From positions 165 to 64,164 of the forward strand of contig JAGWIT010000001.1 of assembly GCA_028866155.1 (NCBI GenBank): DNA of 64,000 nucleotides, given 5' to 3'. The translations under genes were made by a program, and so were the position numbers. This DNA is from Patescibacteria group bacterium (GTDB lineage: Bacteria; Patescibacteriota; Minisyncoccia; Phycocordibacterales; SBAW01). Position 1 is the stretch's first letter; every line of letters begins with the position of its first letter. This document shows, in pieces, positions 1,574 through 43,586 of the stretch. The notes beneath the pieces are model-generated. The model saw only the letters and a program-made list of their open reading frames with translations. It was not told where the DNA came from and did no database searches.

Positions 1574-2925
1574 AGTTTAATTGCCTTCCCCAAAGCCTGC
1601 ATGAGCGCATCAAAAGCCGGCTTCTTGCTCCCATCATACCGCAAAAGGCCGTAAAAATTTTCGGTAGTGCCGGGGTCGGTGCCCAAGTCGATGTAGGTGT
1701 ACCAAAACAGCGGCCCGGCAAAACTAAGTTCTCGCACCTGGGTTACTGCATCGGTAAGTATGAGCGCCTGCAGGGCCTCGGATACGTGGTCGGGATTATC
1801 TGCGAGGTTATAGTCACCCACATCGGCGCCCGCGCCCGGGCCGCCCGTTGGCGCGCCAAACTCGGTTATCCATATTTTTTTGGCGCTATCGCCGTGGGCA
1901 ACCATGACACTCCTGAGCGACGGGTTGGTGGCCGCCATCTCCTGCCAAGCGTTCCACTGCGCCGGATAGCTCGGCAACGCCGGGAACGAGTATGGATGAA
2001 AGCCGACGGCATCAAACGAGGGTCCGGCGCCGTCGGTATAGAGTGCCTGCAAAAAATCGACCGGCGCGATGTTGCCGTCCGACGTTTCTGCAGACGCGAG
2101 CCCGCCGGATATGACTTGTGCCGAAGGGTCGGCCTTTTTTATCGCGGCGCTCGCATCCTCAAGCAGTCGCGCGTAGGCGGCCGGGTCGGGCGCGGGCTGC
2201 CAAAACCGCACGATGTTGGGCTCGTTCCATATCTCCCAATCATGCACGCCCTGCGGGGCAAAGTGTACCGCCGCGGCGCCCGCAAACGCCGCGAACTGCA
2301 TGGGGTCGCTCGGCTGGCAGCGACTTGAGCCGCATTCGGGGTCGTGCGCCCACCAAGGCGAAAAGTCGAGGATTGGCAACACCTGTAAGCCTCTTGTATG
2401 TGCCGCCACCACTATCCGGTCGATGACGCGCCAATTGTATGCGCCACCTTGCTCGCGCTGAATGTAACTCCAATCGGCATCAAAACGCAGCCACGTGATG
2501 CCGAGCGCGACAATGGCATCGAGTCGCGCGCCAAGCTGGGCCTCGCTGAGCCCCGAGAAATCATCCCCCACCGATATGCCAAATCCGCTGGTGTTTGCTG
2601 TCATGGCAGGAGGCGGCGCTGTTGGGTTTGTGGCGGTACTTTTGCTTTGAGGCTGTGCGATTGGTGCCGGCGCGGCAAAAGTCGAGCTTGCCGGTCCAGG
2701 CCCCGGGATCGCCGGCACAGAAGGCTCCGGGGCAGTGTCATGCGACGCTATAGGTCTAAACTGAGCCCCGATGCGCTCAGTCGAAAGCCCGAGCAGTATC
2801 GCAAGGCCCGCGATGCCGAGCATAAGAAGAACCCGCTGCGAGAGCGGCTTCAAGGGCTTTTGGGGTTCGTGCTGGGTATCGTGCTTGAAATCTCGCATTT
2901 CGCCGTGCAGTGCAGTATAGTGCAT
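1570..2925 (-). CDS. Membrane-anchored glycoside hydrolase family 5 (cellulase-like)
   Basis: N-terminal TM anchor. GH5 catalytic motifs EIWNEPN (acid/base NEP) and ITEFG (nucleophile) are present. It has a Pro/Ala-rich linker. Confidence 0.7.
   Translation of the reverse strand: MHYTALHGEMRDFKHDTQHEPQKPLKPLSQRVLLMLGIAGLAILLGLSTERIGAQFRPIASHDTAPEPSVPAIPGPGPASSTFAAPAPIAQPQSKSTATNPTAPPPAMTANTSGFGISVGDDFSGLSEAQLGARLDAIVALGITWLRFDADWSYIQREQGGAYNWRVIDRIVVAAHTRGLQVLPILDFSPWWAHDPECGSSRCQPSDPMQFAAFAGAAAVHFAPQGVHDWEIWNEPNIVRFWQPAPDPAAYARLLEDASAAIKKADPSAQVISGGLASAETSDGNIAPVDFLQALYTDGAGPSFDAVGFHPYSFPALPSYPAQWNAWQEMAATNPSLRSVMVAHGDSAKKIWITEFGAPTGGPGAGADVGDYNLADNPDHVSEALQALILTDAVTQVRELSFAGPLFWYTYIDLGTDPGTTENFYGLLRYDGSKKPAFDALMQALGKAIKL
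2916..2921 (+). promoter_or_regulatory. -10 hexamer TATAGT 7 nt upstream of ATG 2929 (leaderless-type)
   Basis: TATAGT at 2916-2921. No SD lies between the hexamer and the ATG. Confidence 0.3.
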
Positions 2926-2928
2926 CCG

Positions 2929-5073
2929 ATGTTATTGCGAAACATGCCCCTATATATAAAATACTGTATCGCTTATTTCCGTAAAGACAGCCTTTTGCGA
3001 AACTCGGTCTACCTCATGCTCGCGACCGGCGTACTGGCGGGGTTCGGGTTCTTTTTTTGGCTTATTGTGGCAAAAACATTTTCTACCGCAGATATTGGTG
3101 TTGCTACCGCGCTCGTCTCTGCAATGAATTTAATTGCCTACCTATCGCTCATGGGTTTCAATGTCGCATTCGTGCGCTTCACCCCGAGCGCTCAGGACAA
3201 AAACGGCAACCTCAATACGGGCCTGTTAGTTGCCACAGCCGCGGCGATCGTATTTTCAATCGCATTCATACTCATAGCGCCGCACATCTCCATGCATTTA
3301 AGTCTGATAGGATATCCGCTTTTTGCCGCGGGCTTCGTGCTTTTTTGTATCGCAACCACGCTCAATTTGCTCACCGATTCTGTGTTTATAGCCAATCGCG
3401 AAGCAAGATATATTTTGTTTATCAACACAGCCTATAGCGCAGCGAAAATTGGACTGCCGCTCCTGTTCTTAAGCGCGGGAGCCTTTGGCATCGTCACCGC
3501 CGCGGCGCTCGCGCAGGCGCTGGGTCTGGGCTTAAGCATCCTCGCAATGATGCATTTGTTTGCATATCGCCCGCACCTTACCTTGAAGTCATCGGTTCTC
3601 GGGCAGGTATGGCGCTACTGCGCCAGCAACTACGTCGCGAGTATTTTTAGCCTTCTGCCTGCCACGGTGATGCCGCTCATGGTCATTGGGGCGCTCGGGC
3701 CTGAACCAGCAGCATACTTTTATATAGCAATGATGATCGGTAATCTCCTATATGTTATCCCGTGGTCGATCACGCGTGCGCTGTTTGCCGAAGGCTCTCA
3801 CGACGAAGTCACTCTATTACAAAACGCCAAAAAGGCGATGTTCATTATTGGAGCGCTCCTCACACCTGCGATATTGTTCTTAGCGCTCTTCGGCAGCTTT
3901 ATTTTGAGCATTTTTGGCCGCGGCTATGCGCAAGGCAACAGTTTGTTGCTGCTCCTTGCGCTTGCAGGCTTCGCGGTTGCGGTGATGGCCATAGCAAACG
4001 CCATATTTTTGGTAACTAAACAATCCCGAGAGGTTGTGGTACTCAATGTTACCTTTGCGATCGCCACTATCGCGTTGGTGTATGCGCTGCTCCCGCTCGG
4101 GCTTTACGGCGTGGGAGTTGGTTGGCTCGTGGGCAATGCGATCGCCGCGCTGGCGGGATACCTACTCTTTCGTCGAGAGTCGATCATGACTAGCTGGTGG
4201 AAAAATTTTAACATCCCTATAACGATTATAGTGGCTAAGTGGCGCTATCTGCGCGCGAGCTTCGCGCGCGGCGATAAACGTACGATTTTGTTCTATCCTC
4301 ACAAGCCGCAGCATTTTCATATCCTCTACGCGATAGTGCATGAGCTAGGCTATGCGGTTACTACCAACCCTTCGAAGTGCCATGAACTTGCTATTGCTTT
4401 TGAAGATCAAACGATCCGTTCGAACGAGCACCATGCAGTGCTCCAAGAACTCGCGCGCACGCAGCCGGTAGCGAACCTCAACTGCGCCGACATATCCAAA
4501 GAAAACATCGAAAAAATATTTAGAGAAACTTACGGCTACAACACCTTTGTGAACCCCGAACAGTATAGCGGCCGGTGTGTGCGCAAATCAAATAACAATT
4601 CCACCCACGACGGAGTGTTCATCGCCTGCCCTGCTGCGAAAGAGCCCGGCTATGTGTATCAAAAATTCATCGAGTGCGAACACGAGGGCCGTATTGCAGA
4701 TCTGCGCGGCATTATCATGGGCGGGAAGCTCAGGCATATCACACTTAAATACAAAGCTCCCGAAGCGCGGTTTGACATCACGAGCGACATATCGATGCGG
4801 CGCCCCGACACGTTGCTGAGTGCGCAAGAAATTGAAGGCGTTGAATCGTTTTGCAAGAGCTTGGGTCTTGATTGCGGCGAGATGGATATACTGCGCGACA
4901 AAACGGATGGCAAAATTTATATAATTGATGTCAGCAACACCTCCGGCGGCCCGGTACGCAACCTGCACCTGCCGGCTCAGGAATATGATGCGTACGTGCA
5001 AATGCTAAGCGAGAGTTTTGCCCGCGCCTACGGCCTAGCGATAGACGCGCGCCTCACCGTTGTCGTACAGTAG
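2929..5073 (+). CDS. Wzx-like polysaccharide flippase (polysaccharide biosynthesis protein family) fused to a C-terminal ATP-grasp-like cytoplasmic domain
   Basis: About 12-14 TM helices with the O-antigen/teichoic-acid exporter-like pattern. The C-terminal ~290 aa (from about 4200) carry an ATP-grasp-like signature DGKIYIIDVSNTSGG (compare NEVNTxPG). The first 177 codons of the listed 891-aa ORF (2398-2928) are an Arg-rich antisense artefact of the GH5 gene. The start may be 2929 or 2944. Confidence 0.55.
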   Translation: MLLRNMPLYIKYCIAYFRKDSLLRNSVYLMLATGVLAGFGFFFWLIVAKTFSTADIGVATALVSAMNLIAYLSLMGFNVAFVRFTPSAQDKNGNLNTGLLVATAAAIVFSIAFILIAPHISMHLSLIGYPLFAAGFVLFCIATTLNLLTDSVFIANREARYILFINTAYSAAKIGLPLLFLSAGAFGIVTAAALAQALGLGLSILAMMHLFAYRPHLTLKSSVLGQVWRYCASNYVASIFSLLPATVMPLMVIGALGPEPAAYFYIAMMIGNLLYVIPWSITRALFAEGSHDEVTLLQNAKKAMFIIGALLTPAILFLALFGSFILSIFGRGYAQGNSLLLLLALAGFAVAVMAIANAIFLVTKQSREVVVLNVTFAIATIALVYALLPLGLYGVGVGWLVGNAIAALAGYLLFRRESIMTSWWKNFNIPITIIVAKWRYLRASFARGDKRTILFYPHKPQHFHILYAIVHELGYAVTTNPSKCHELAIAFEDQTIRSNEHHAVLQELARTQPVANLNCADISKENIEKIFRETYGYNTFVNPEQYSGRCVRKSNNNSTHDGVFIACPAAKEPGYVYQKFIECEHEGRIADLRGIIMGGKLRHITLKYKAPEARFDITSDISMRRPDTLLSAQEIEGVESFCKSLGLDCGEMDILRDKTDGKIYIIDVSNTSGGPVRNLHLPAQEYDAYVQMLSESFARAYGLAIDARLTVVVQ

Positions 5074-12635: not shown

Positions 12636-12644
12636 TGCTATACT
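12636..12644 (+). promoter_or_regulatory. Extended -10 promoter TGcTATACT 6 nt upstream of ATG 12651 (leaderless)
   Basis: TGCTATACT at 12636-12644. Six nt follow, then the ATG. There is no SD. Confidence 0.5.
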
Positions 12645-12650
12645 CACGCT

Positions 12651-13121
12651 ATGAAATCCCGCTGGATCATACTTGCGCTTTTGCTCGCCGTTATCGTCGC
12701 CGGCGCGGCGGCGCTCGTCCTCATCCCCCGCCCGCAAACCGCCGTGGCACCGACGGGGGAAGGAGCCACAACAACTCCTGCCGCAAGCGGCTCATCGCTT
12801 GATGATTTAATAAAGGTCACAACGCCTGCACCTAACGCCTCAGTCGCTTCACCGCTTATGGTCGAAGGACAAGCCCGCGGCAACTGGTTCTTTGAGGCGA
12901 CCGCCCCCATGGCTTTGCTCGACGCAAACGGCAGCGTTATCGCGCAAGGCGCCATTACCGACAGCGGCGACTGGACCAGCGGCGACTTCGGAGCATTTAC
13001 CGGGTCTCTTACCTTTCCCGATCAACCGGCCGGCTCTCAAGGCACGTTGGTGCTCAGCAATGACAACCCCTCGGGCAATCCTGCCACTCAAAAGACACTT
13101 GATATACCGGTAACGTTTTAA
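12651..13121 (+). CDS. Secreted Gmad2-type immunoglobulin-like domain protein
   Basis: Signal peptide, Thr/Ala-rich linker, and a domain with MVEGQARGNWFFEA...ITDSGDWTSGDF that resembles Gmad2 Ig-like domains. Confidence 0.45.
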   Translation: MKSRWIILALLLAVIVAGAAALVLIPRPQTAVAPTGEGATTTPAASGSSLDDLIKVTTPAPNASVASPLMVEGQARGNWFFEATAPMALLDANGSVIAQGAITDSGDWTSGDFGAFTGSLTFPDQPAGSQGTLVLSNDNPSGNPATQKTLDIPVTF

Positions 13122-13130
13122 TTTCTGCGG

Positions 13131-13679
13131 TTAGAGCCCCGAGTGATCGCTGCGGGCTCCGCGGGATTCGCGTTCGAAGGAGTCTAACTTTAGGTTTTCG
13201 GCCTTCCAGCCCACGCCGTTGGCCCAAATTTGGATAAGCGAGCCGGCTCCCGCCAGGGCCAAAAAGAAGATAATAGACCACGCCCACGGATATATAAAGT
13301 AGAAGAACACCACCGCTAAGGCCGACCAGATGCCGATGCACCATGGGCACTGGAGCAGGTCGTAGATGGTATGACGAAAGCCGCTGCCAAAGGGCTGTAT
13401 CTCAACATACGTTGCGCCGCCTTCGGTAAACTCGCGGCTGTAGGCAAACAGCTCGCGAAACCAGCGGGTTATTTTGTCGTACACTATCAAGCGCGTGATG
13501 CGAAAGGTCGCCAGCGCCATGAGCAGCGCGTCAAACGGCGGCACCGACACCAAAAACCCGCCACGCATGAGGTTCATGACGTATAAAGCGGCTACTAATA
13601 CGCACATGAAGAACACGCTAAAAATAAAATTCCATAAATTTTGGTCCTCTTTGTGGCGCTTGTGTATCATAGCCTTCAC
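13131..13679 (-). CDS. DUF1360-family integral membrane protein
   Basis: RITRLIVYDKITRWFR motif and four TM segments, typical of DUF1360. Confidence 0.45.
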   Translation of the reverse strand: MKAMIHKRHKEDQNLWNFIFSVFFMCVLVAALYVMNLMRGGFLVSVPPFDALLMALATFRITRLIVYDKITRWFRELFAYSREFTEGGATYVEIQPFGSGFRHTIYDLLQCPWCIGIWSALAVVFFYFIYPWAWSIIFFLALAGAGSLIQIWANGVGWKAENLKLDSFERESRGARSDHSGL

Positions 13680-13902
13680 TATACCGCAGGTTTTTTCGGT
13701 GGGATGAGATACTCATTTAAGGCTCAAAATCGCTTCTAAAAAAACGCCTTATTTGCAGACTTTTATGAGAAATTGATTGCTAAGTGGCGAAAAACATTTC
13801 CGGCTAACCGTTTGGGGACAAGGTTTTAGAAAAAATGCCCTTAAAGAGGAGTATAATAAAAATTCCGGCTATAAACTATTTTTTATTAGCTAAGAAGCGG
13901 CC

Positions 13903-18414: not shown

Positions 18415-19209
18415 TTATCTAAGAGACTTATCAATCTCATACTCCCCCACTTTGGTGCGCAGGATATGGAGCGCGAGCGCGGGGACGCCGAGCTCTTGAC
18501 CCAGTTTGTGGGCTATTGAACGCGCGTAGGTGCCGGAGGAGCACTCTATTTTTATTGTCGCACAGGGAAACTCGCGCTCGCCGCTTTGTTGCAGATTGCG
18601 CTTCCAGAGCCGCGTTATTTCTTCCTGCCGGAAGTCGCCGTTGACCTTCTCGATGCTCGTTTCGATATAGGAGAGCAGCGCCGGCTCTTTGACCTTGTAG
18701 ATCCCGACCAGGTCGATGTGGTAGATATTGACCATGCGGCTGGGCAATATGATAGAGCTCAGCGCATTGCCGCGCGCCCACTCAAACAGCGATTTGCCTT
18801 CGACCGTTTTACTCGAGTACGGCGGATACTCCTGAGCTACCGCTCCGCGAAATTCATTCAAACCTTTTTCAATTTCCCTGCGAGTGAGGCCGCTGCAATC
18901 GCCCGTCTCTATGACGCGCCCGAGGATGTCATAGGTGTCGGTGGCAAAGCCGAACAGCACGTCGAGCGTATACTCCTTGCCGAGATCCAAATACTGCTCG
19001 CGGCGGCGGTTGGCCGAGCCCACGAGGCACAGCATGACCCCCTCGGCCATGGGGTCCAGCCGGCCCGCGTAGGAGAGCACCTCGTGGGCATAGTGGGGCT
19101 TCTGCGCACGCAGGCGCTCGAGGCGCTCGCGGGGGGTTTCGCCCAGGTTTTTGTATACATTGAGGACCGCTCCAGCCTTGTTCAGATCAGCATTATTCAT
19201 CTGCGGCAT
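18415..19209 (-). CDS. truB: tRNA pseudouridine(55) synthase
   Basis: GRLDPMAEGV catalytic Asp motif and the TruB family pattern. The start is taken at ATG 19209 (MPQMNN). The listed longer ORF would overlap the hisS start. Confidence 0.75.
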   Translation of the reverse strand: MPQMNNADLNKAGAVLNVYKNLGETPRERLERLRAQKPHYAHEVLSYAGRLDPMAEGVMLCLVGSANRRREQYLDLGKEYTLDVLFGFATDTYDILGRVIETGDCSGLTRREIEKGLNEFRGAVAQEYPPYSSKTVEGKSLFEWARGNALSSIILPSRMVNIYHIDLVGIYKVKEPALLSYIETSIEKVNGDFRQEEITRLWKRNLQQSGEREFPCATIKIECSSGTYARSIAHKLGQELGVPALALHILRTKVGEYEIDKSLR

Positions 19210-19231
19210 TTCTGCTACACTGTACACTACA

Positions 19232-20482
19232 ATGACAAAAAAGGATAAATTATCGGTCGAGCCGTACAAAGGCGTGCGCGATTTCTATCCCGAGGAGCAG
19301 GCATTTCTCAACTACTTCATTGCCACGTGCCGCGAATTCGTCGAGAAGGTCGGTTATGTCGAATATGATGCTTCGCCGCTTGAACCCTCGGAGCTCTATA
19401 AAGCCAAGGGCGCCGAAAATGAGGAGATGGTCAATGAGCAAACCTACACCTTTGTCGACCGCGGCGGGCGCGAGGTGACGCTCCGGCCCGAAATGACGCC
19501 GACGGTGGCGCGCATGGTGGCGGGCAAGCGCCGCGAGCTTGGCTTCCCTTTGCGGTGGTATTCACTGCCCAATTGTTTTAGATACGAGCGGCCCCAGCGC
19601 GGTCGTCTGCGCGAATTTTGGCAACTCAACGTCGATCTCTTCGGCTCGCATTCCCCGTATGCCGATGCTGAAATTATCGCCATGGCGTATGGTCTGATGA
19701 AGGCATTTGGGGCGGAGGATGACGACTTTGTAATAAAAGTGAATAGCCGCGCATATCTTAATAAGTTGACAGAAAAACTTTCTGATGAAGCCCGTAAAAA
19801 ACTTTTTAATTTACTTGACCGCAAAACCAAGATGCCAAGCGACGAGTTTGAAGCGGGTTTGCGTGAACTTGCTATTTCTCCAGAAAGATTTATGAGCGCT
19901 GAAGGACCAGCTGAGATTGAAAAAATGATTAGAGAATTTAGTGACGCTGGTATTAAAAATATTATCTACGATCCCTCAATCGTGCGGGGCTTTGCCTATT
20001 ACACCGGCATGGTGTTCGAGGTGTTCGACACCCACCCCGACAACAATCGCGCGCTCTTCGGCGGCGGGCGCTACGACAATTTAACCGCGATGTTCGACGA
20101 CGAGCCGGTGGCGGGTGTGGGGTTTGGCATGGGCGACGTCACCATCCGCGACTTCTTGGCAGTGCGCAATTTGTTGCCCGTCTACGCGCCGCCCACGCAC
20201 GTTTATATAGCTATACCGTCGTCCGAATTGGCCCTCCAGGCGCAAACCTTCGCGGGGAGCCTGCGCCAGCAAGGCGTCAACGTCGCGGTGGACTTTGGCG
20301 AGAAGAAGCTCGGCGACCAGATCAAGACGGCTGCCAAGCACAACATACCGTTCGTTATCGTGCTCGGGCAAGACGAGCTCGCCTCGGGACAATACACCGT
20401 TCGAGATCTTGAAACCGGCAGTGAAAAAAAGCTGGATAAGGGTCAGTTGTCCGAATTCTTCTTAAATATTGAACGCAAATAA
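19232..20482 (+). CDS. hisS: Histidyl-tRNA synthetase
   Basis: Class II aaRS motifs (FRYERPQRGRLREF, GGGRYD) and a C-terminal anticodon-binding domain. The start is ATG 19232 (MTKKDKLS). Confidence 0.85.
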   Translation: MTKKDKLSVEPYKGVRDFYPEEQAFLNYFIATCREFVEKVGYVEYDASPLEPSELYKAKGAENEEMVNEQTYTFVDRGGREVTLRPEMTPTVARMVAGKRRELGFPLRWYSLPNCFRYERPQRGRLREFWQLNVDLFGSHSPYADAEIIAMAYGLMKAFGAEDDDFVIKVNSRAYLNKLTEKLSDEARKKLFNLLDRKTKMPSDEFEAGLRELAISPERFMSAEGPAEIEKMIREFSDAGIKNIIYDPSIVRGFAYYTGMVFEVFDTHPDNNRALFGGGRYDNLTAMFDDEPVAGVGFGMGDVTIRDFLAVRNLLPVYAPPTHVYIAIPSSELALQAQTFAGSLRQQGVNVAVDFGEKKLGDQIKTAAKHNIPFVIVLGQDELASGQYTVRDLETGSEKKLDKGQLSEFFLNIERK

Positions 20483-21064: not shown

Positions 21065-21075
21065 TAGTAGCTTTG

Positions 21076-21081
21076 TAGAAT
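21076..21081 (+). promoter_or_regulatory. -10 hexamer TAGAAT 6 nt upstream of ATG 21088 (leaderless)
   Basis: TAGAAT at 21076-21081. No SD. Confidence 0.4.
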
Positions 21082-21087
21082 TAGCTT

Positions 21088-21849
21088 ATGAAATCACAAT
21101 ATATTTTGCCTATTACTATTGTTGTCGCGGGTTTGCTCATTGCCGGTGCGGTTTTTTGGGTCGGTAAAAGCGGGACTATAGCGCCCAATACCACCAACGG
21201 CCAGCAACAAAATATCACCTTCCCTCCGGTGACCTCGGCCGACCACATCCTTGGCAACCCCAATGCACCGGTTAAAGTTATAGAGTACGCCGACCTTGAG
21301 TGCCCATACTGCAAGGTATTCGAAACGACGATGCATCAGGTGATGGACTACTACGGCCAGTCGGGGCGGGTGGCATGGGTGTACCGTCCGTTCCCGCTCG
21401 CGCAAATCCACTCCAAAGCTCCGCAGGAAGCCGAGGCGGCCGAGTGTGCGGCCGACCAGGGCGGCAGTACGGCGTTCTTCAACTACATCGACAAGCTGTA
21501 TGCGATCACGCCGTCGGAGAACGGGCTTGATTTGGCGCAGCTGCCAGTCATTGCCGGGGACGTCGGGCTCAATGTCACCCAGTTCAACACGTGCCTTAGC
21601 TCAGGCAAATATGCCTCGAAGGTCCAGCAAAGCTACAATGACGCCATCGCCGCAGGCGGCACCGGCACACCGTACATCCTCATCACGGTGCAGGGCTCAA
21701 AAGACGCGGTGCCGCTCGAGGGCGCCCAGCCCTACGACAGCATGCGTGCGGCAATAGACGCGGTGCTCTCGACCATTCCCGGCGGCTCGGCCACCACCGC
21801 AAGCAGCACACCGGCGGCTACTCCAACCGCCCCCGCAGCCACTCAGTAA
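21088..21849 (+). CDS. DsbA-family thiol:disulfide oxidoreductase (membrane-anchored, extracytoplasmic)
   Basis: N-terminal TM helix, thioredoxin-fold CPYC active site (EYADLECPYCKVF), and a Thr/Ala/Pro-rich C-terminal tail. Confidence 0.75.
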   Translation: MKSQYILPITIVVAGLLIAGAVFWVGKSGTIAPNTTNGQQQNITFPPVTSADHILGNPNAPVKVIEYADLECPYCKVFETTMHQVMDYYGQSGRVAWVYRPFPLAQIHSKAPQEAEAAECAADQGGSTAFFNYIDKLYAITPSENGLDLAQLPVIAGDVGLNVTQFNTCLSSGKYASKVQQSYNDAIAAGGTGTPYILITVQGSKDAVPLEGAQPYDSMRAAIDAVLSTIPGGSATTASSTPAATPTAPAATQ

Positions 21850-21854: not shown

Positions 21855-22700
21855 CTACAAATCGGGCCTGAAGTGTGCATCGTATTCTTCGGGGAGGAGG
21901 TTAATATTATAGATATCAAGCGAGTTCTCGCCTTCGAAAAGATCCGACGGGTTGGGCAGAAATACTTTGGTGTGCGCTATGACTTCTGTCGCATCGCGGA
22001 TGAGCCGGTTAAAAATGATGAACTCGCGCCGAAAGGCGCGAAAGTCTATAACATACCGCCGCAGCTGCGGGCTGCCGTCGGCGTTGCGGGTTATTTTACA
22101 TTCATGCACGATAAAGCGCCGCACCGGTTTGCCGTAGAGTTTTTTTACCGTGTAGTAATTGAATATCGCCTGAAAGACAAAAAGAGATTTATCGGCCCGC
22201 AACGGGCTGAATGCGGCGACGAACTTATGGTCGACAATATCAACTCCGCGCGGATCGACTTTTGATTGAACGACCAGGTCGGAGACGGCTTTTATCGGGA
22301 GCGGCAAGCCCTCTACTTCAGCCACCGCTTTAACTTCAACACCAAGCACCTTGTATGTGGGCGGCCGCGCGAGGTAAAAGCCTATAGCCTGCAGATACTC
22401 GTGCTCCATTGCGGCGCGCTTTTTCTTTTTTGCCAAGCGGCTCCTTGCCTTGCCGAAGTTTATCTCAAAGTCCGGCACCTCCCGCAGATACTCAAGCCCC
22501 AATTCAGTGGCGCCCTCCTTCCCTAATCCGCCATAAAAATGCTGGAGAGCCACGTGCCCTGCGCGCCCGACAATGCCGGACGGGCTCGAGGGCGTGTCAT
22601 ACACCTCTTCGACATAGCGCTTATACCAGGCCAGCGGATTGCGCAAAAAAGCCATCAACGAAGAGTGGCTCCAGTGTTTGATGGGAAGTTCTTTGCCCAT
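21855..22700 (-). CDS. PD-(D/E)XK nuclease superfamily protein
   Basis: N-terminal WSHSSLMAFLRNPLAWYKRY and a D...DxK-like core (VDIVDHKF), typical of RecB/Cas4-like PD-(D/E)XK_1 nucleases. No Cys cluster. Confidence 0.4.
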   Translation of the reverse strand: MGKELPIKHWSHSSLMAFLRNPLAWYKRYVEEVYDTPSSPSGIVGRAGHVALQHFYGGLGKEGATELGLEYLREVPDFEINFGKARSRLAKKKKRAAMEHEYLQAIGFYLARPPTYKVLGVEVKAVAEVEGLPLPIKAVSDLVVQSKVDPRGVDIVDHKFVAAFSPLRADKSLFVFQAIFNYYTVKKLYGKPVRRFIVHECKITRNADGSPQLRRYVIDFRAFRREFIIFNRLIRDATEVIAHTKVFLPNPSDLFEGENSLDIYNINLLPEEYDAHFRPDL

Positions 22701-22706
22701 ATCTCT

Positions 22707-22712
22707 ATTCTA
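22707..22712 (-). promoter_or_regulatory. -10 hexamer TAGAAT 6 nt upstream of ATG 22700 (leaderless, minus strand)
   Basis: The reverse complement of 22707-22712 is TAGAAT. Then AGAGAT, then the ATG. Confidence 0.4.
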
Positions 22713-22713
22713 C

Positions 22714-22742
22714 TTGCCTTCTTCCTGCATATCGAGTATAAA
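22714..22742 (+). promoter_or_regulatory. Sigma70-like promoter TTGCCT-17-TATAAA for a small peptide gene
   Basis: TTGCCT at 22714-22719 and TATAAA at 22737-22742. Confidence 0.4.
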
Positions 22743-22928: not shown

Positions 22929-24221
22929 TTAATAACTCCGTAGTCTTTTTGCCTTTTCGTGCGTGCGGATGCGCTCGAGAGCTTTAGCCTCTATTTGGCG
23001 GATACGCTCGCGCGTGACGCCAAACTTTTTGCCCACCTCCTCAAGCGTGTGGTAGATGCCGTCCTCAAGACCGTGGCGCAGTTTGAGTATCTCGCGTTCT
23101 TTTGGCGAGAGTTCGTCGAGGATCTCCCGCAACTGGTCGGCCAAAATGCGGCGCGCCACCTCCTGGTCGGGCGAGAGAATTTTGTCGTCTTTGATGAAGT
23201 CGCCGAGCGTCGACTTGCCGTCGCCGTCATCGTCGCCGACCGGACTCTCGAGCGAGACCGTATCCTGATCTATCTTTTCTATCTGGTAGACCTTCTCGAC
23301 ATCGATGCCCATCTCAAGCGCTATCTCCTCGGCCAGAGGGTCGCGGCCGAGATCCTGGCTGAGACGCCGCGAGACCTGCTTGTACTTGGCAATGGTCTCG
23401 ACCATGTGTACGGGGATGCGGATGGTGCGGCTTTGGTCCGCCAAAGCGCGCGTAATGGCCTGGCGGATCCACCACGTCGCATAGGTAGAAAACTTGTAGC
23501 CTTTGGTGTAGTCAAACTTATCGACCGCCTTAAAGAGGCCGAGGTTGCCTTCCTGTATGAGGTCAAGCAAGGTGAGGTCGGGCGAGCGACCGACATATTT
23601 TTTGGCAATAGACACGACGAGGCGCAGATTGGCGCGCGCCAAGAGGTTCCTCGCCTCGCTGTCGCCCTCGGTGATGCGCTTGGCGAGATCGCGCTCGGAC
23701 TGCGCGTTGAGGAGCGGGTACTTGCCTATCTCACGCAGGTACATTTGTATCGAGTCGTACTGCGAGTCCGAGCGGGAGTAACCCTTCTCGGCTACCGCTT
23801 CATTTATTTCGAGCATGCCGCCGCCTTCGAGCACGTCGATGCCGGCGGTCGCGAACTTTTCATACAGCTCTTCAAGAAAGACCACGTCGCTCTCTATCGT
23901 CGGGAAGCTCTTGAGTATCTCGTCATAGGTGACGAAGCCGCGCTGGCGGCCGCTGGCCATCAGCGCCTCGGCCTTCTTGTCCTGCTCCTGCGCTTTTTTG
24001 AGGAGCTTGGGGCTCAGGGGCGAGACTATTTTCCCCGACGCTTTGGTGGTCCCGACCTTGCGTCGGGACTTAGACGCAAGCTTTGCCTGCCCGCGGATGC
24101 GGGACGCGGCCAGGGAGCGCCGCTTCGCGGCGCTAAGTCTAAATTTGCGCGCCTTAGCGCTCGCGGTTTTGCCCTTCCGCGATTTTTTGCCTGCCGCCTT
24201 CTTTTTCGCCATTTTCACCAT
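22929..24221 (-). CDS. rpoD: RNA polymerase sigma factor RpoD (sigma-70)
   Basis: Region 2 ([40 protein letters not shown]), region 4 HTH, and a Lys/Ala-rich N-terminus. The start is taken at ATG 24221 (MVKMAKKK). Confidence 0.85.
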
Positions 24222-24249
24222 TATATCACACAAGCCCCGCAGAGGGAAG

Positions 24250-25968
24250 CTATTTGCGCAGTTCCTGCTGGCGACGCTTGAGGAAAGAAAGCTTATGGAG
24301 CAGACTCTTCTGGTCGCTCCCTGTTTCATGCAGTTGATGCTGGACGAGGTTCATTTCTTCTTCAAGCTGGGAGCGCTCTATCGTATCGAATAATGATTGT
24401 TTAGCGGCTGCCGTTTCTTCCCCTAATGACTCAAATAGGAAGCGCAGCGCCTCGGCCTCGGGCTCCAATTGTTTTTGTATGGAGGCGTACCGCTCTTCGC
24501 CGAGCAAACCGGAGAGCTTCTTTTGCAATTCCGCGTCATGTGGAAAATAAAAGATGAGCATGCCGGCGGCTTTTTCGAGATTGGTGCGCTCCGCCGTTTG
24601 CAAGGGAGCGGGTTCTGTTTCTTCAATATGCAGCGCGGGTTTTTTTGCTACTTCTGCGCGGACCGCCGCCTCAGACACCTCTAGCCGCGAAGCAGTAATG
24701 CGGACAAAATGCTCCTGCTCTATCGCGCTCTGGAGCGCGGCAATAAGTGGGAGCACCCGGGACTCGGCCAATTTTTTATATGCGCGTTCGTCTTTGGCCT
24801 GCGGGCGCAGTACATCCAAAAAGAACTCTATCGCCGTTTTAGAGGTCCGCACCGCGGCCTTAAGAAGCTCGGGGTTCTCTTTGGCGACATCGGCCGGATC
24901 CTTGCCCTCGGGGAGGGCTGGCACTTTGACATCAAAGCCGTGCGAGTATGCCATCAGCGTGCTTTTGAGCCCTGCGCGTATTCCCGCCGAGTCGGCATCG
25001 AGCGCCAGCACCAAACGCTTGCTAAGCCTGCCGAGGAGCGAGAGATGCTCGTCGGTGAGCGCCGTGCCGGAAATCGCGACCGTAAATGGCAAACCCGATT
25101 GGTGAGACATCACGACGTCGAACTGCCCCTCGACGAGCAGGATGCAGTCAGCCTTGCGGATAAAATTTTTGGCGATGTGGAGCCCATAGAGCATGCGCGA
25201 TTTTTTAAACAGCGCGGTCTCGGGGCTGTTGACGTATTTTGCGGGTTCAGCCCGCGGCTCGGCATCAGTTTTGCGCGCATCGCCAGGCATATCTTCAAAA
25301 AATCTGCCTGAGAACGCGATGACCTTGCCGTTCATGTCAAACAGCGGGAACATGATGCGCCCGCGAAACCGGTCGTAGATATTCCCCGGGGTTGAACCTC
25401 TATCCGCGAGGTTCGACCTCGCGGGATCAATTGCCAGCCCAGCATCAACTATCTCGTCCTTTTTAAATTCGAGTGACGCCAAATGTTCCGTCAATTCGCG
25501 CCAGCTTGCCGGCGCATAACCGAGACGCCACGTCTTAGTAGTATCATCATGCACGCCGCGCGCGCGGATATAGTCGGCGACATCTTTGCGCCCTGCCAAC
25601 TTGGACTCAAAAAAAACCGTGGCGGCCTCAAGCACATCTTTCAATCTTTCGTCATGCTCTTTGTGCTCGGGTGCCGGAGCGAAGTTCTTTTTCAACTTCA
25701 CGCCCGCTTTTTCGGCAAGCTGCTTTAAAGCGGTCGGGAAGTCAACACCGTCCATTTTTTGGACAAAAGAAAAAATATCGCCCTTTTCGCCGCATCCAAA
25801 ACACATGTAGGTGCCCCTCTCGGGGCTTACCATGAACGATGGCGTGCGCTCTTTGTGGAAGGGGCACTTGGCGCGAAAATTCCTCCCCGCGCGCTGGAGT
25901 TGTACGTACTGCCCCACCACATCATTGATGCTGAGCTTATTCTTAATTTCCTGAACTTGGGAGTCCAT
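24250..25968 (-). CDS. dnaG: DNA primase
   Basis: CHC2 zinc finger ([11 protein letters not shown]...CFGCGEKGD) and TOPRIM domain. Classic dnaG-rpoD arrangement. Confidence 0.85.
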
Positions 25969-26104
25969 AGACTTATAGTCTACTCTTTTTGGTCCTTTCG
26001 CTTGTACTTGACATTAGTGAAAAGTAAATGTTAAAACAAAGCCGGAGTTCGTCTGGGGCGCTGTAATCTCTACAGCGTGAGAGGCAAATCCAATAGCAGG
26101 AGCA

Positions 26105-26871: not shown

Positions 26872-33750
<6,879 letters not shown>

Positions 33751-33761: not shown

Positions 33762-34003
33762 CTAGGGGCCTTAGTAATTCGAACTTCTACTTTTTAAAAA
33801 GAATCAAGACTGTTATGCACAGTGTCAAAACACGAAAAGTCGGGGCGCATATAAAGCTCCCCTGCTCGATTCCTCAAGCGTGTGGTTTTATCCTCCCACC
33901 TCTATTGATTTGTATCGAAACCCCGCTCTCGATACTCAGTCGTTACCCTGCCCTGGTTTCGCTCTCTAGTATAGCAAACAGGGTTTGGCTGTCAAATAGG
34001 CAA

Positions 34004-34663: not shown

Positions 34664-35299
34664 CTACGCTTCGTAAAAAACGCTACGCTCGACCATGTCT
34701 TTGGTGAGCACATCTACAAACCGCATCATTATGGGGTAATTTTTTGCCGCTTTAACTTTATTCCCTAGATGCATCTCAAGAGTAACTTTAAGGCGCTTTA
34801 TCGATTGCTCATTAACCGGGTCGAGCAACTCAAAGAGCGGTTCAATTTTATCAAGCGCATTTGCGAATAGCGCTTCGGGGCTCAGGTGTTCTTCATATTC
34901 ATGCCACGCGTCAAAACCGACTCTTTGCAAAGACGGCGGGAGTAAAGCAAAAATTTCTTTTGCGGCTTCTTTCTCCCTTTCTTCATGTTCTTTTGTCTTA
35001 TGGTAGGTTACGGCGTCGCCGTATTTTATCTCTCCAAAATCATGAAAAAGGAGTATGCGGGACAACTTCCCTGCGTCGAGCGTCGGGCCAATGGGCTCAT
35101 GGAGCAGAAAATATTGAGCAAGAAATATGAGGCCGAACACGTGCTCGGCGACCGACTCATTGTGGGCAGCCAGGTCCCGCTTTGAGGCATAGCGGATGGT
35201 CCGCTTAAGTCCAAAAGCCACCCGCAGTTGATGAGCCTCTTTTAGAATCTCTTCATCTGACATATCCAGTACTTTTTTCATACAAAAAATCCGCACCAC
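34664..35299 (-). CDS. HD-domain phosphohydrolase (YfbR-like 5'-deoxynucleotidase family)
   Basis: H...HD...D motif set: ESVAEHVFG and LFHDFGEIKYGD. Confidence 0.65.
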   Translation of the reverse strand: MVRIFCMKKVLDMSDEEILKEAHQLRVAFGLKRTIRYASKRDLAAHNESVAEHVFGLIFLAQYFLLHEPIGPTLDAGKLSRILLFHDFGEIKYGDAVTYHKTKEHEEREKEAAKEIFALLPPSLQRVGFDAWHEYEEHLSPEALFANALDKIEPLFELLDPVNEQSIKRLKVTLEMHLGNKVKAAKNYPIMMRFVDVLTKDMVERSVFYEA

Positions 35300-35343
35300 T
35301 ACTGTAGCGCGGATTTTATTTTCTGTCAGTTTTTAAAAAGAAA

Positions 35344-35706: not shown

Positions 35707-35745
35707 CGCTGTATATTTAATTGAGTAAGCAACCCAACGGTAATT

Positions 35746-36081
35746 TTATTCTTTCGGGACCTCTTCCACAACGTCGTTACTCACAGGGGCTTCATCCGTC
35801 GCAGGTGCCGCTTTGAACTTCGGTAAAATATTTATCTTTTTGGCGTCGATTATTTTGTTTGACACAAGCAAATTGTGTACGGTGTCGCTCACCTGCGCGC
35901 CCTGGCTCATCCAGTGTTTAATGCGCTCGGCCTTGAACTCGACGCGGTCGGCCCGGGGGTCATAGGAGCCGAGCATCTCGAGATAGTTGCCGGCCTTAAC
36001 CTTGCGCTTTGAATCAATGACAATAACCCTAAAAGAAGGGTCGTTCTTGCGGCCAACGCGGGTGAGGCGGATAGTAAGCAT
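35746..36081 (-). CDS. rpsP: 30S ribosomal protein S16
   Basis: MLTIRLTRVGRKNDPSFRVIV... matches the S16 N-terminus. The start is ATG 36081. The listed longer ORF begins with a TTG. Confidence 0.85.
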   Translation of the reverse strand: MLTIRLTRVGRKNDPSFRVIVIDSKRKVKAGNYLEMLGSYDPRADRVEFKAERIKHWMSQGAQVSDTVHNLLVSNKIIDAKKINILPKFKAAPATDEAPVSNDVVEEVPKE

Positions 36082-36147
36082 ATGTGGGCAACACTCTATC
36101 AAATAGACACGCTAAGGTCAATAAGCCTTTTTATTTTAAAGGATTCG

Positions 36148-36156
36148 TGGTATACT
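36148..36156 (+). promoter_or_regulatory. Extended -10 promoter TGgTATACT 10 nt upstream of the rnr ATG
   Basis: TGGTATACT at 36148-36156. No SD. Confidence 0.45.
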
Positions 36157-36166
36157 GTTTTTAATA

Positions 36167-38146
36167 ATGTCTCGCAGAAGCAACCGCAAAGAAGCAGGCC
36201 CAAACGGCGATGCTCCCAAGAAACATATCTCCGGCGTCATACAAATCACCCGCAGCGGACGGGCTTTTTTGCCGTGGCCCGAGGAGCCAGAGAAAGAAGA
36301 TATTGAGATACAAAAAGAGCACCTGTGCGGCGCTTTAAACGGCGATACGGTCGAAGTTGCATTAACCAGTTTATTCCCAAGACCAAAAGGCAAAGTCGCC
36401 AAAGTGCTCGAGCGCGCCAAAGAAGAATTTGTCGCGACCCTTCGACAGGCTCAGGGCAAGCTTGTTGCGATTCCCGACGATGTTAAATTTTACCGGCCCA
36501 TCCGTCTCTCCGCCGAGAGCCGCTATGCAGAAGGAGAGAAAGTGCTCGTCCGTTTACTTTCGTTTACCGGCACCGAAGACCCCACAGGCACGATTATTGA
36601 ACACCTCGGCCGCGCGGGCGAGCATCGGGTGGAGATGAACGCCATCGTGCTTGAGCACGGGTTTCGCGTCGAGTTCTCCGAGGCCGTGCTCAATGAAGCG
36701 CGCGAGATAGAGAAGAATCACGCGGCAACCATCGCCAAAGAGGCTCCTCATCGCGCGGACTTTCGCGACGCGGTGACCTTCACCATCGACCCCGTCGACG
36801 CCAAAGACTTCGACGACGCGCTGTCGGTGCTCGAGCTCCCCAACGGGGAAATAGAAATAGGCGTGCATATCGCCGACGCCACCTACTTTTGCGTACCCGG
36901 CACCGCGATAGACGATGAGGCAAAAAAACGCGGCACGAGCGTCTACCTCGTCGATGCGACCATCCCGATGCTCCCGCATGAACTGAGCGGCAACGTCTGC
37001 TCGCTTAAAGCCGGCGAAGACCGGCTCGCTTTCTCGGCCGTCTTCCGGATGAACGCCAAAGGCGAGGTGCTTTCGCGCAAGTTCGAGAAATCCATCATCC
37101 GCTCCAACAAACGCTTTACTTACGAAGAAGCGCAAGAAATTTTAAACAAAGAGAAGGGAGAATACGTGCGCGAACTTCTTATATTGCGTTCACTTGCTCG
37201 CGTATTACGCTCACGGCGCGAACGCGACGGCGCGATAGACTTCGGCGACAATGAGGTGCGGTTTATTTTGGACGAACAGGGCAAACCGCTCAAAGTGGTG
37301 CGCAAGGAGCGCATAGAGACCAACCTCCTTATCGAGGAGTTCATGCTGCTGTGCAACCGCGAGGTGTCGGAGTTTGTCTCAAAGCTCGCCGAGAACGTGC
37401 CCGAAAAAAATTATATATTCCTGTATCGCATCCACGATGAGCCCAAAGCAGACCGCATCGAGGAGCTTGCAACCTTTGTCCGCGCGGTCGGCTACGACTT
37501 TGCCCACCCTGGCCGGGCAGGCAAAAAAAAGAAGCCCAGCGCCAAGGACATCCAAAAACTGCTCAGGGAGATCGCCGGTAAGCCCGAGGAGCATCTTATC
37601 CGCACGGCAACGCTCAGAAGCATGGCCAAGGCCATTTACTCGACCAAAAATATCGGGCACTTCGGCCTGTCATTCAAATATTACACGCAGTTCACCTCAC
37701 CCATACGCCGCTACCCCGACATGCTCGCGCACCGGATATTAGAGAGCCACTTAAACGGCAAGCCAATCACGCGCAGCGAATATACGCACCTCGAGAAGAT
37801 GTGCCTGACTGCGAGCGAGCAGGAGGCAAAGGCGGTCGACGCCGAGCGCGAGTCCATCCGCTACAAACAGGTCGAGTATATGCTCGGCAAAGTGGGCCAG
37901 ACGTTCGACGCCACGATAAGCGGCGTCACCGACTGGGGCTTGTATGTCGAGGACAAAGAGAGCGCCGCCGAGGGTTTGGTGCGCGTGCGCAGTTTGGGCG
38001 ATGATTTTTACAACTATTCGCAAAAAGAATACGCGCTGATAGGCCAGCGCAGCAAAAAAAAGTACGCGCTGGGGGATTCCCTGCACGTAAAGTTGGTTGC
38101 CGCCGATTTAGCGACGCGCCAATTGGATTTTGAACTGGCACACTAG
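36167..38146 (+). CDS. rnr: Ribonuclease R (RNB-family 3'-5' exoribonuclease with C-terminal S1 domain)
   Basis: RNB catalytic region (HIADATYF...VDATIPMLP) and a C-terminal S1-like domain. Confidence 0.8.
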   Translation: MSRRSNRKEAGPNGDAPKKHISGVIQITRSGRAFLPWPEEPEKEDIEIQKEHLCGALNGDTVEVALTSLFPRPKGKVAKVLERAKEEFVATLRQAQGKLVAIPDDVKFYRPIRLSAESRYAEGEKVLVRLLSFTGTEDPTGTIIEHLGRAGEHRVEMNAIVLEHGFRVEFSEAVLNEAREIEKNHAATIAKEAPHRADFRDAVTFTIDPVDAKDFDDALSVLELPNGEIEIGVHIADATYFCVPGTAIDDEAKKRGTSVYLVDATIPMLPHELSGNVCSLKAGEDRLAFSAVFRMNAKGEVLSRKFEKSIIRSNKRFTYEEAQEILNKEKGEYVRELLILRSLARVLRSRRERDGAIDFGDNEVRFILDEQGKPLKVVRKERIETNLLIEEFMLLCNREVSEFVSKLAENVPEKNYIFLYRIHDEPKADRIEELATFVRAVGYDFAHPGRAGKKKKPSAKDIQKLLREIAGKPEEHLIRTATLRSMAKAIYSTKNIGHFGLSFKYYTQFTSPIRRYPDMLAHRILESHLNGKPITRSEYTHLEKMCLTASEQEAKAVDAERESIRYKQVEYMLGKVGQTFDATISGVTDWGLYVEDKESAAEGLVRVRSLGDDFYNYSQKEYALIGQRSKKKYALGDSLHVKLVAADLATRQLDFELAH

Positions 38147-40573: not shown

Positions 40574-40583
40574 TTAAACTATT

Positions 40584-41279
40584 TTACCACCCGTTTTTCT
40601 CAAGGGCGGCTTGGGCTGCCGCTTGTTCGGCTTCCTGCTTGGCTTTGCCGGAGCCTTCGGCGATGAGCTTGTCTTTGACGTATACGCCGACGACAAAACG
40701 CTTGTCATGGTCGGGGCCGGCCTCTTTGAGGACCGAGTAATAGGGGGTAACGCCCTCCACCTCCTGCACCTTTTCCTGCAAGGCCGATTTGGAGTCCTGC
40801 CACAGCTTCTTTTTTATTATCTCGTCGATCTTGGGGAAGAGATGTTCCGAGATGAATGCGCGCGCGGCGTCATAGCCCTGGTCGAGGTAGATGGCGCCGA
40901 CCACCGCCTCAAACGCATTGGCGAGCAAAACGCCGCGCGCACGGCCCGTGTCCTTTGCCTCCCCGCGGCTAAGCAGAAGGTAATCGTTCATCCCCAATTT
41001 TTGAGCGACCTCCGAAAGCGTCACCGCGTTGACCAGCGCCGCGCGATACGCGGTTAAATCGCCCTCGGGTTTGTCGGGGAATTTTTCATACAAAAAGTGC
41101 GTCGATATGAGCTCGAGCACGGCGTCGCCCAAAAACTCGAGCCGCTCGTTGTGGCCGCCCTTCTCCCCGCGGTGCTCGTTAAGGTAGGAGCGGTGGGTAA
41201 ACGCCTGCCGCAAAAGCGAAAGATCATTGAACGAAACGCCGAGCGTCTCTTCGAACGATTGAAAATCTCTGCCTGGCAT
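40584..41279 (-). CDS. rnc: Ribonuclease III
   Basis: ERLEFLGDAVLEL signature and a C-terminal dsRBD. Confidence 0.85.
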   Translation of the reverse strand: MPGRDFQSFEETLGVSFNDLSLLRQAFTHRSYLNEHRGEKGGHNERLEFLGDAVLELISTHFLYEKFPDKPEGDLTAYRAALVNAVTLSEVAQKLGMNDYLLLSRGEAKDTGRARGVLLANAFEAVVGAIYLDQGYDAARAFISEHLFPKIDEIIKKKLWQDSKSALQEKVQEVEGVTPYYSVLKEAGPDHDKRFVVGVYVKDKLIAEGSGKAKQEAEQAAAQAALEKNGW

Positions 41280-42251: not shown

Positions 42252-42476
42252 TTATTTTTCGGCCTTGACCTTCGCCTCCTTGCGGGCGGCGCGGGCCCTC
42301 GCCTTGGCTGCGAAGTCGATGACCACCTTCCCATTATACCGCCCGCATGCCGGGCATGCGCGATGAGACACGCGCATGTTCCCGCACTCGCACTTGACGA
42401 GCGAGTGGGCCTTGAGCGCGTGGTGCGACCGGCGGTTAGCCGTGTGCGCACGGGTATGTCGCATTCGTACAACCAT
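42252..42476 (-). CDS. rpmF: 50S ribosomal protein L32
   Basis: RRSHHAL and C..CG....HRACPACGRYNGK zinc-ribbon pattern of L32. Confidence 0.75.
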   Translation of the reverse strand: MVVRMRHTRAHTANRRSHHALKAHSLVKCECGNMRVSHRACPACGRYNGKVVIDFAAKARARAARKEAKVKAEK

Positions 42477-42589
42477 GCCAGCACTATATCATCTTCTTAT
42501 ATTTGACGCCAGCTAAAGCCGGCTATGAGCTAAAAAAGACAAACCGGGCGCTGTGAGCGTCCGGTTCTTATTTTTTGCTGAACGAAATC

Positions 42590-43543: not shown

Positions 43544-43586
43544 TAGGACATTCTATCAGAACTGGCTCAAGAGAGGAGCGCGGGGG

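Follow-up and report, generated by a model that had tools for sequence, protein, structure and literature searches.

Sigma70 −10 boxes placed directly before start codons suggest leaderless or nearly leaderless transcripts in a Paceibacteria genome and its relatives

How do ribosomes find a start codon that has no Shine–Dalgarno (SD) sequence in front of it and is preceded, within a few nucleotides, by a hexamer resembling the −10 element of a sigma70 promoter? This question is raised by a stretch of 64 kb from an ultra-small bacterium (contig JAGWIT010000001.1, assembly GCA_028866155.1), here called the window, which has a GC content of about 55%. It carries housekeeping genes (among them a fusion of rpoB and rpoC, rpoD, dnaG, dnaE, gyrB, smc, rnr, nrdAB, hisS, pheST, rpsP, rpsB, tsf and a release-factor gene) and in addition genes for glycosyltransferases and a sortase. 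An original prediction made for this DNA had listed nine such hexamers, several of them with an extended TG, as signs of a leaderless architecture. All nine are found at the positions and spacings it gave, including those before rnr (36148, gap 10) and hisS (19216, gap 10), where the gap is the number of nucleotides between the −10 hexamer and the start codon. We find that in many genes of the window the ATG is preceded at 6–8 nt by a −10 box, and that an SD sequence is missing. We consider it likely, with a probability of roughly 80%, that these hexamers are sigma70 −10 elements lying so near to the ATG that the mRNAs would be leaderless or nearly so; the positions of the transcription start sites (TSS) and the mode of ribosome recruitment are in this account those which we infer from the sequence.

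For comparison we used 80 related loci (L001 to L080), obtained from species-representative genomes that were scanned with the RpoBC protein of the window. All of them belong to the Patescibacteria, Paceibacteria/Parcubacteria group, and the nearest ones (79–88% RpoBC identity) carry the labels Candidatus Adlerbacteria or Paceibacterota. Judged by these matches the window is part of a genome of the Paceibacteria (Parcubacteria; Candidate Phyla Radiation, CPR) near Candidatus Adlerbacteria. The fusion of rpoB and rpoC, a single open reading frame (ORF) of 2292 aa at 26872–33750 on the minus strand, is found at full length in 80/80 Paceibacteria loci with an identity of 52–88%.

The position of the hexamers relative to the start codons was tested in three ways which involved no curated start codons. 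In a motif-anchored scan we collected on both strands all hexamers with at least five of six matches to TATAAT (A2 and T6 fixed) and then looked for an ATG with which an ORF of 100 aa or more begins. For the 196 hexamers of the window such an ATG occurs eight times at gap 6 and four times at gap 7, together 12 vs. 1.8 expected, with a mean of 0.9 for the other gaps between 0 and 30 (Poisson P=4e-7); reversed control motifs gave a flat distribution with no gap peak. In the second test only the first start after a stop codon was used for each of 41 automatically called window genes. At these longest-ORF starts TANNNT stands at exactly gap 6 in 7/41 genes, with 0.94 expected (P=6e-5). In the third test a more specific pattern, TAKAVT-N6-ATG, which was picked post hoc after the data had been seen, matches 10 times vs. 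0.91 ± 0.90 in 100 dinucleotide shuffles (maximum 3). When 50 kb of E. coli K-12 were run through the same pipeline, a −10 peak was absent and an SD peak stood out clearly, TANNNT being present at gap 5–9 in 2/42 annotated starts and the SD core in 24/42 (57%). The signal of the window is found again in the 80 loci, where TGNTANNNT, a motif of the form TGnTAnnnT, is followed at gap 6–8 by the ATG of a long ORF 133 times vs. 32 expected (P=6e-40), and where 83/761 longest-ORF starts have the hexamer at gap 6 vs. 25 expected. In our reading the leaderless trait belongs to the Paceibacteria (Parcubacteria) as a lineage and is not specific to the window.

That chance produced the pattern, or that it only reflects the AT-richness of upstream sequence and a choice of start codons made with the hexamer in mind, we regard as hardly credible. 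The TANNNT pattern is admittedly loose and AT-rich, TANNNT-N6-ATG is only mildly enriched in the window (21 matches vs. 14.4 ± 3.6), and the curated starts given below are partly motif-based. However, both the motif-anchored and the longest-ORF test peak sharply at gap 6–7 over flat controls, the E. coli control lacks the peak, and the signal is kept across orthologues at 52–88% RpoBC identity.

The window sites were then curated on the basis of Pfam domain boundaries, neighbouring genes and the N-termini of orthologues. This inventory contains 16 genes with a −10 box 6–8 nt before the ATG and five more with a box at 9–11 nt, corresponding to 16 (43%) or 21 (57%) of the ∼37 transcription-unit starts of the window. 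In the first group the start codon is ATG in 16/16 cases, and the extended TG noted earlier at several sites is present as TGn in 8/16. The sites at gap 6–8 are:

2913–2931 (+), 714-aa membrane protein: TATAGT 2916–2921, gap 7, ATG 2929
12636–12653 (+), Gmad2 Ig-like secreted protein of 156 aa: TGc-TATACT with hexamer 12639–12644, gap 6, ATG 12651
13668–13686 (−), DUF1360 protein: TATAGT 13683–13678, gap 7, ATG 13670
21073–21090 (+), DsbA-like thioredoxin: TAGAAT 21076–21081, gap 6, ATG 21088
22698–22715 (−), PD-(D/E)XK nuclease: TAGAAT 22712–22707, gap 6, ATG 22700
24210–24228 (−), rpoD (sigma70): TGa-TATAAT 24225–24220, gap 7, ATG 24212
25966–25985 (−), dnaG: TAGACT 25982–25977, gap 8, ATG 25968
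40571–40589 (−), smc: TGg-TAAAAT 40586–40581, gap 7, ATG 40573
42474–42491 (−), rpmF (bL32), 74-aa ORF, identity read from the sequence: TGa-TATAGT 42488–42483, gap 6, ATG 42476
43541–43558 (−), rnhB: TGa-TAGAAT 43555–43550, gap 6, ATG 43543
43584–43601 (+), dnaE: TATACT 43587–43592, gap 6, ATG 43599, PHP domain from residue 7
52926–52965 (+), 355-aa ORF: TTGACA 52926–52931, 17 bp, TGg-TAGCTT 52949–52954, gap 8, ATG 52963
58912–58929 (−), pheS: TATACT 58926–58921, gap 6, ATG 58914
58945–58962 (+), GT2 glycosyltransferase: TGg-TATAGT 58948–58953, gap 6, ATG 58960
61385–61402 (−), 135-aa hydrophobic ORF ending directly at tRNA-Thr: TATACT 61399–61394, gap 6, ATG 61387
63762–63779 (−), rpmE (bL31), 73-aa ORF, identity read from the sequence, with the release-factor gene downstream: TGc-TATAAT 63776–63771, gap 6, ATG 63764

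The sites at gap 9–11 are:

19207–19234, truB (−): TACAGT 19224–19219, gap 9, ATG 19209
19207–19234, hisS (+): TGc-TACACT 19216–19221, gap 10, ATG 19232
36079–36121 (−), rpsP: TTGACC 36121–36116, 17 bp, TGa-TAGAGT 36098–36093, gap 11, ATG 36081
36148–36169 (+), rnr: TGg-TATACT 36151–36156, gap 10, ATG 36167, predicted leader ∼4 nt
52854–52895 (−), sortase: TTGACA 52895–52890, 17 bp, TAGGCT 52872–52867, gap 10, ATG 52856

The genes for which the original prediction listed a hexamer are, rpoBC excepted, all in this inventory, and the prediction had missed rpoD, smc, rnhB, pheS, rpmF, rpmE and dnaG as well as the DUF1360 protein and the ORFs starting at 61387 and 52963. For rnr and hisS, both listed there, the box is present and its gap of 10 would give a short leader of the 3–5 nt class. 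The start codons near the boxes are independently supported, since Pfam domains begin at residues 1–7 in DnaE, DnaG, SMC and RNase HII and since the orthologue alignments begin at residue 1.

Besides its position the motif has features of promoters. Before first-in-unit genes of the 80 loci the TGn extension is found in 72/201 hexamers, and TTGACA-like −35 sequences are enriched in the loci at a spacing of 16–17 bp (8% and 13% vs. ∼4%). In the window a TTGACA-like −35 is explicit, at 17 bp, at rpsP, at the ORF 52963 and at the sortase gene, and most sites are without one. The sigma factor of the window is encoded here:

22929–24212 (−), rpoD, housekeeping sigma70, E. coli promoter-reading residues retained

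In E. coli sigma70 the residues that read the −10 element, the TG and the −35 element are established. The sigma70 of the window is identical to the E. coli protein over a segment of 17 residues and in the residues of region 2.3–2.4; it keeps Y425, Y430, W433, W434, Q437 and T440 for reading of the −10 element, H455 and E458 in region 3.0 for the TG and R584, E585, R588 and Q589 for the −35.

A different explanation would be that TAnnnT at −12 to −7 is not a promoter but a ribosome-binding or start-context signal of a non-SD type, similar to the one of Bacteroidetes and pairing with an altered 16S 3′ tail. We consider this very unlikely, although it would suit a lineage without SD in which the anti-SD is absent in half of the Parcubacteria, and although a conserved AAATATAC stands 3–4 nt before an operon-internal KH gene and T at −1 is found in ∼50% of the starts in all gene classes, so that some start-context signal does exist. 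Operon-internal genes that overlap their upstream neighbour carry the motif no more often than the control does (8%). At first sight it did seem to occur before operon-internal genes in general, in 26% of them and in 42% of those with an intergenic distance of 6–15 nt. We traced these matches to the TAA and TAG stop codons of the upstream genes; they lack TGn and have A as the dominant base at hexamer position 3, and this excess accordingly does not speak for a ribosome-binding site. In addition TGn and a −35 at 16–17 bp are features to be expected of promoters only, and the consensus is that of sigma70, which is intact in the window. Finally the motif occurs at variable distances (TGnTAnAAT 4–35 nt before hisS orthologues and 7–17 nt before rpoD orthologues) and before tRNA genes, where a TGnTAnAAT-type box was seen as well; the 12 tRNAs found are consistent with a promoter and too few for statistics.

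Of the tRNA genes the one for tRNA-Thr (window 60905–61010, minus strand), which was the sole match in an Rfam scan of the window, has a TATAGT 10 nt before the mature 5′ end, where the last part of the ORF in front of it still runs, and the tRNA-Thr gene of L040 (25760–25860) has a TATAAT 6 nt upstream. The 5′ leaders of these tRNAs may accordingly be very short or absent.

If the hexamers are promoters under selection for their position, the box is expected to be kept among orthologues while the spacer between box and ATG diverges, and this is what is found: the spacer differs in sequence, and its length varies by a few bases. For this comparison the starts of the orthologues were anchored by alignment to the window proteins, and TANNNT was scored at gap 5–10:

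rpsP, first in unit: TANNNT 39/44 (89%), TGn 73%
smc, first in unit: TANNNT 17/21 (81%), TGn 71%
rnhB, first in unit: TANNNT 5/7 (71%), TGn 57%
dsbA, first in unit: TANNNT 9/15 (60%), TGn 13%
rpmF, first in unit: TANNNT 12/13, TGn 3/13
rnc, internal: TANNNT 20%, TGn 0%
exo, internal: TANNNT 27%, TGn 0%
KH, internal: TANNNT 21%, TGn 5%
nusB, first in unit and boxless in the window: TANNNT 27%, TGn 7%

TGn amounts to 0–7% in the operon-internal sets vs. 57–73% for rpsP, smc and rnhB. In the remaining families the box is seen with more varied spacing: orthologues of the PD-(D/E)XK nuclease have TATACT at gap 6–8, relatives of rpoD have TGnTATAnT at gaps 7–17, and close relatives of dnaG have TAGAAT, TATACT or TAAAAT at gaps 7–12. 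In front of the smc orthologues the TGn follows without a gap on a terminator hairpin with its T-run, and the −35 position lies inside the terminator stem, so these promoters are probably −35-independent. Terminator T-runs abutting the TGn box or the ATG of the next gene were observed in L056, L002, L079 and L004 (smc) and in the window at 35282–35320 (minus strand); such terminators leave no room for a −35 and reflect an extreme compaction of the intergenic regions.

It could still be argued that the boxes are real but only secondary or internal promoters, the main transcripts being leadered and coming from upstream, or that translation starts further downstream. Extended −10 boxes are indeed present 14–45 nt upstream of gyrB, rpsB, nrdA, an aminoacyl-tRNA synthetase gene (46947) and a gene for a peptidoglycan-binding protein, rpoBC has a long conserved leader, the distance between box and ATG varies among orthologues, and smc, dsbA and trmD lie 10–23 nt behind a gene on the same strand, where read-through is possible. 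Nevertheless we think this explanation improbable. Several ATGs form divergent pairs, 22 bp apart for truB/hisS (with overlapping −10 boxes), 55 bp for rnhB/dnaE and 45 bp for pheS/GT2, and with both −10 boxes lying in between there is no upstream space and hence no room for leaders. In the smc orthologues it is a terminator which abuts the box, the N-terminal domains and orthologue alignments place the start at the ATG near the box, and with a box at 5–10 nt in 80–90% of the rpsP, smc and rpmF orthologues this would be the main arrangement of these genes.

The divergent pairs deserve a further remark. Back-to-back or overlapping −10 boxes are found at 2912–2923, 19216–19224, 43544–43598 and 58915–58959; at the first of these the 12 bp GCAGTATAGTGC (2912–2923) contain TATAGT when read on the plus strand and, in the direction of a divergent GH5 gene, TATACT when read on the minus strand. 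This arrangement resembles the symmetric bidirectional promoters that Warman et al. reportedly described in 2021. Of the genes with a more distant box, gyrB (GTG 56177) has TGaTAGAAT upstream (window 56178–56225, minus strand) and rpsB (ATG 62599) has TGcTACATT (62600–62650, minus strand); both boxes lie 34–38 nt upstream, and inside each leader there is a hairpin with a T-run which may be an attenuator.

Two further elements were noticed upstream of genes in this analysis. In the close relatives L001, L002, L003, L004, L029 and L056 a conserved GTCAATAAATG stands immediately upstream of the −10 box of rnr; in the window its counterpart has diverged to GTCAATAAG and is located further upstream. 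Possibly this stretch acts as an operator or UP-like element. The second one, AAATATAC(T/A)G, precedes by 2–4 nt the start codon of a KhpA-like KH gene, which is operon-internal and follows downstream of rpsP (window 35707–35725, minus strand). This element is kept in L001–L006, L009, L029, L043 and L056, and its distance from the ATG is too short for a leaderless promoter.

The conservation test also removed two candidates which in the window look like the others. The hexamer TATAAA before rpoBC (33761–33756, minus strand, gap 5) is present as stated in the original prediction. It is, however, a poor −10, and neither it nor the alternative TAGTAT is kept when the upstream regions of 70 orthologues are compared; at 75–245 nt upstream there are instead a conserved promoter, a structured RNA and a terminator. 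In the window this upstream promoter consists of TTGACA (33996–33991) and TATACT (33974–33969, minus strand), separated by 16 nt of which the last three are TGc; promoter and RNA together take up 33826–33996. We also viewed the region in 11 Adlerbacteria-like loci: the promoter is strong in the window and in 11/11 loci, a TTGAC-type −35 being visible in 9/11. Behind it a conserved RNA of 135–170 nt starts with GAAACCA and ends in a GC-rich hairpin and T-run ∼75 nt before the ATG. Within this RNA one stem covaries (GTATCGA/TCGATAC vs. GTTTTGA/TCAAAAC), and the RNA had no match in Rfam. The sequences concerned are:

rpoBC upstream RNA in the related loci: L001–L006, L009, L029, L035, L043, L056, L079

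From the presence of promoter, RNA and terminator we conclude that rpoBC probably has a leader and is subject to attenuation, or else that a small-RNA gene of its own kind stands in front of it. The RNA is accordingly a candidate attenuator or leader, or else an unknown small RNA. The leaderless signature claimed for the window is supported for a large share of the units, which have a −10 at 6–8 nt and lack an SD, and has to be given up for rpoBC. The second candidate, trmD (TACTGT, gap 6), has a weak hexamer beside the stop codon of the HD gene, its orthologues show a box in 42% vs. 25% for the control, and it was left out.

The original prediction had combined the leaderless genes with genes using a classic SD. 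Taking GGAG, GAGG or AGGA 4–12 nt upstream of the start as SD core, we find no SD enrichment among the genes of the window and the loci, 56/962 starts (5.8%) having the core vs. 53/962 (5.5%) at a control offset, and in the motif-anchored scan the window shows no SD peak, unlike E. coli. A mixed leaderless and SD strategy is thus unsupported, SD words being at chance level in the window and its relatives. Two of the “island” genes, for which a classic SD had been proposed, namely the ORF 52963 and the sortase gene (52856), have TTGACA-17-(−10) promoters 8–10 nt from the ATG. The SD sequences described before an orphan gene and small ORFs do exist as words (AGGAG before 26111, GGAG before 22772, GGGAG before 46664), and they are not enriched over chance. 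Other SD-like words stand before 51359 and 1230, again at chance frequency, and for all five of these ORFs (26111, 22772, 46664, 51359 and 1230) no homologues were found in the related loci. Across the loci there was no correlation that would indicate a trade-off between SD and leaderless starts, the number of genes per locus being small, and the 16S rRNA 3′ end was not found in the window or the 80 loci.

What remains upstream of the start codons is a composition in which G makes up only 8–15% and A and T are elevated. The base at −1 is T in 44–53% and G in 5–9% of the genes (all starts, window and L001–L080). A T at this place could be taken for the pyrimidine(−1)/purine(+1) signature of a TSS, but operon-internal genes show it equally; T at −1 is a lineage-wide start-codon context. 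Operon-internal genes have an A-rich, G-poor upstream region and frequently overlap their neighbour by ATGA or TAATG, and beyond the A-richness and the T at −1 no localized motif was found before them. These properties fit initiation in unstructured regions or coupled initiation. The mix of strategies would accordingly be one of leaderless and SD-independent initiation and not of leaderless initiation and SD.

A number of observations weigh against our interpretation and have to be set beside it. The curated count of 16 of ∼37 unit starts made partial use of the motif in choosing the starts, and an automated, conservative, background-subtracted estimate is lower: a strong −10 at gap 5–9 precedes about 24–28% of the first-in-unit genes, a value common to the window, its close relatives and the wider class. 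The hexamer of smc overlaps the stop codon of rnc, a configuration that gives false positives elsewhere. Gaps of 8–11 imply short leaders and not zero-length ones, and the distance between box and ATG drifts among orthologues (7–12 for dnaG, 7–17 for rpoD). As described above, rpoBC and trmD resemble the other sites of the window and yet fail the conservation test. In the wider class, moreover, SD-like words 4–7 nt before ATGs are 1.5–1.7-fold up in the motif-anchored scan, and some lineages may use SD a little.

Taking these points into account we still favour sigma70 promoters with leaderless or nearly leaderless transcripts, and propose the following scheme. Transcription would start from −10 elements which often carry the TGn extension and in some cases a TTGACA −35. 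With a gap of 6 the canonical +1 would be the A of the ATG, with a gap of 7–8 the A or a base 1–2 positions upstream, and with a gap of 9–11 (rnr, hisS and rpsP having 10–11) a leader of 3–5 nt would result. A leaderless or near-leaderless mRNA cannot carry an SD, and initiation on such SD-less mRNAs would depend on the 5′ end and the AUG, as on leaderless mRNAs elsewhere. The 5′-terminal AUG of leaderless mRNAs is bound by ribosomes together with initiator tRNA and IF2, and S1 and the anti-SD are not needed for this; that the same binding takes place in Paceibacteria is what we infer. The remaining genes, operon-internal or leadered, would be served by SD-independent initiation and translational coupling.

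A wider generalization can be formulated, for and against which we see about equal odds. The whole class Paceibacteria would have given up the SD/anti-SD interaction; a third to a half of the units (among them rpsP, rpmF, rpmE, sigma70, primase, DnaE and SMC) would be leaderless or have a leader of 1–5 nt, transcribed from −35-independent extended −10 promoters, and the rest would be SD-less. Such an archaeal-like or ancestral-like regime would have co-evolved with the reduced ribosome, the reduction consisting of the loss of anti-SD and bS21 and a short bS1.

The proposed architecture would offer a testable account of how translation starts in Parcubacteria without anti-SD, and would tie the ribosome reductions of the CPR to mRNA architecture. 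It also has practical consequences. The longest-ORF rule misplaces at least nine starts in the window (dnaE, rpoD, hisS, truB, pheS, rpsP, the DUF1360 protein, tsf and the 714-aa membrane protein at 2929), and annotation easily overlooks short leaderless genes like rpmF and rpmE. A start model aware of promoters should give better N-termini for thousands of metagenome-assembled CPR genomes. In the genetic systems now being developed for Patescibacteria, TGnTAnAAT followed by 6 nt and ATG could serve as design rule for promoters and 5′ ends. And a deep-branching bacterial lineage would be added to the debate on ancestral leaderless initiation.

Three observations on the window are recorded here for completeness. 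NusB is joined to a NUDIX hydrolase domain in a protein of 305 aa (41286–42203, minus strand). Between rpmF and rnhB lies a Cys-rich ORF of 96 aa (42590–42880, minus strand), which matched nothing in Pfam and lacks homologues in the related loci. In a look-up for transcript-like contigs the rpsP protein was found on one other contig, a 1.8-kb assembly fragment.

How does this compare with known systems? [quoted passage not shown] The window resembles members of this group such as Mycobacterium tuberculosis and D. deserti: the box is localized at 6–8 nt, operon-internal genes lack it, ATG serves as start codon, and the estimated share of 24–43% of the units is within or near the range of 25–50%. 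Unlike in group C, in which the remaining genes use SD, there is no SD enrichment here in any gene class; extended TGn boxes are frequent, and the lineage, CPR/Paceibacteria, is unmentioned in the text of PMC6028130. The archaeal group D (Halobacteria, Sulfolobus) likewise has many units beginning at the start codon and a low dependence on SD. Its TATA/BRE box is, however, located ∼26 nt upstream, whereas here a bacterial sigma70 −10 lies at ∼10 nt, and the window itself has the gene for sigma70. With Bacteroidetes (group B) the window shares A-rich, G-poor and SD-less initiation regions before operon-internal genes, but there the same non-SD motif precedes all genes and here the localized motif is promoter-like and restricted to unit starts.

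The nearest link is to work on the same lineage. Only 48% of the 16S rRNAs of Parcubacteria have a detectable anti-SD, and many of these bacteria lack bS21 (Tsurumaki et al. 2022, RNA 28:1041; PMC9297842), and the loss of anti-SD (CCTCCT) and bS21 predicts an SD-independent initiation which matches the SD-free starts found here. That study analysed rRNA and ribosomal proteins and not the 5′ architecture of mRNAs, leaderless genes are unmentioned in it, and the 16S rRNA of the window organism lies outside the window. Our full-text searches returned no open-access paper linking leaderless genes to CPR, Patescibacteria or Parcubacteria. To sum up, leaderless architecture as such is known in bacteria; what differs here is the lineage, for which our searches gave no earlier report, and that the other genes are SD-less as well.

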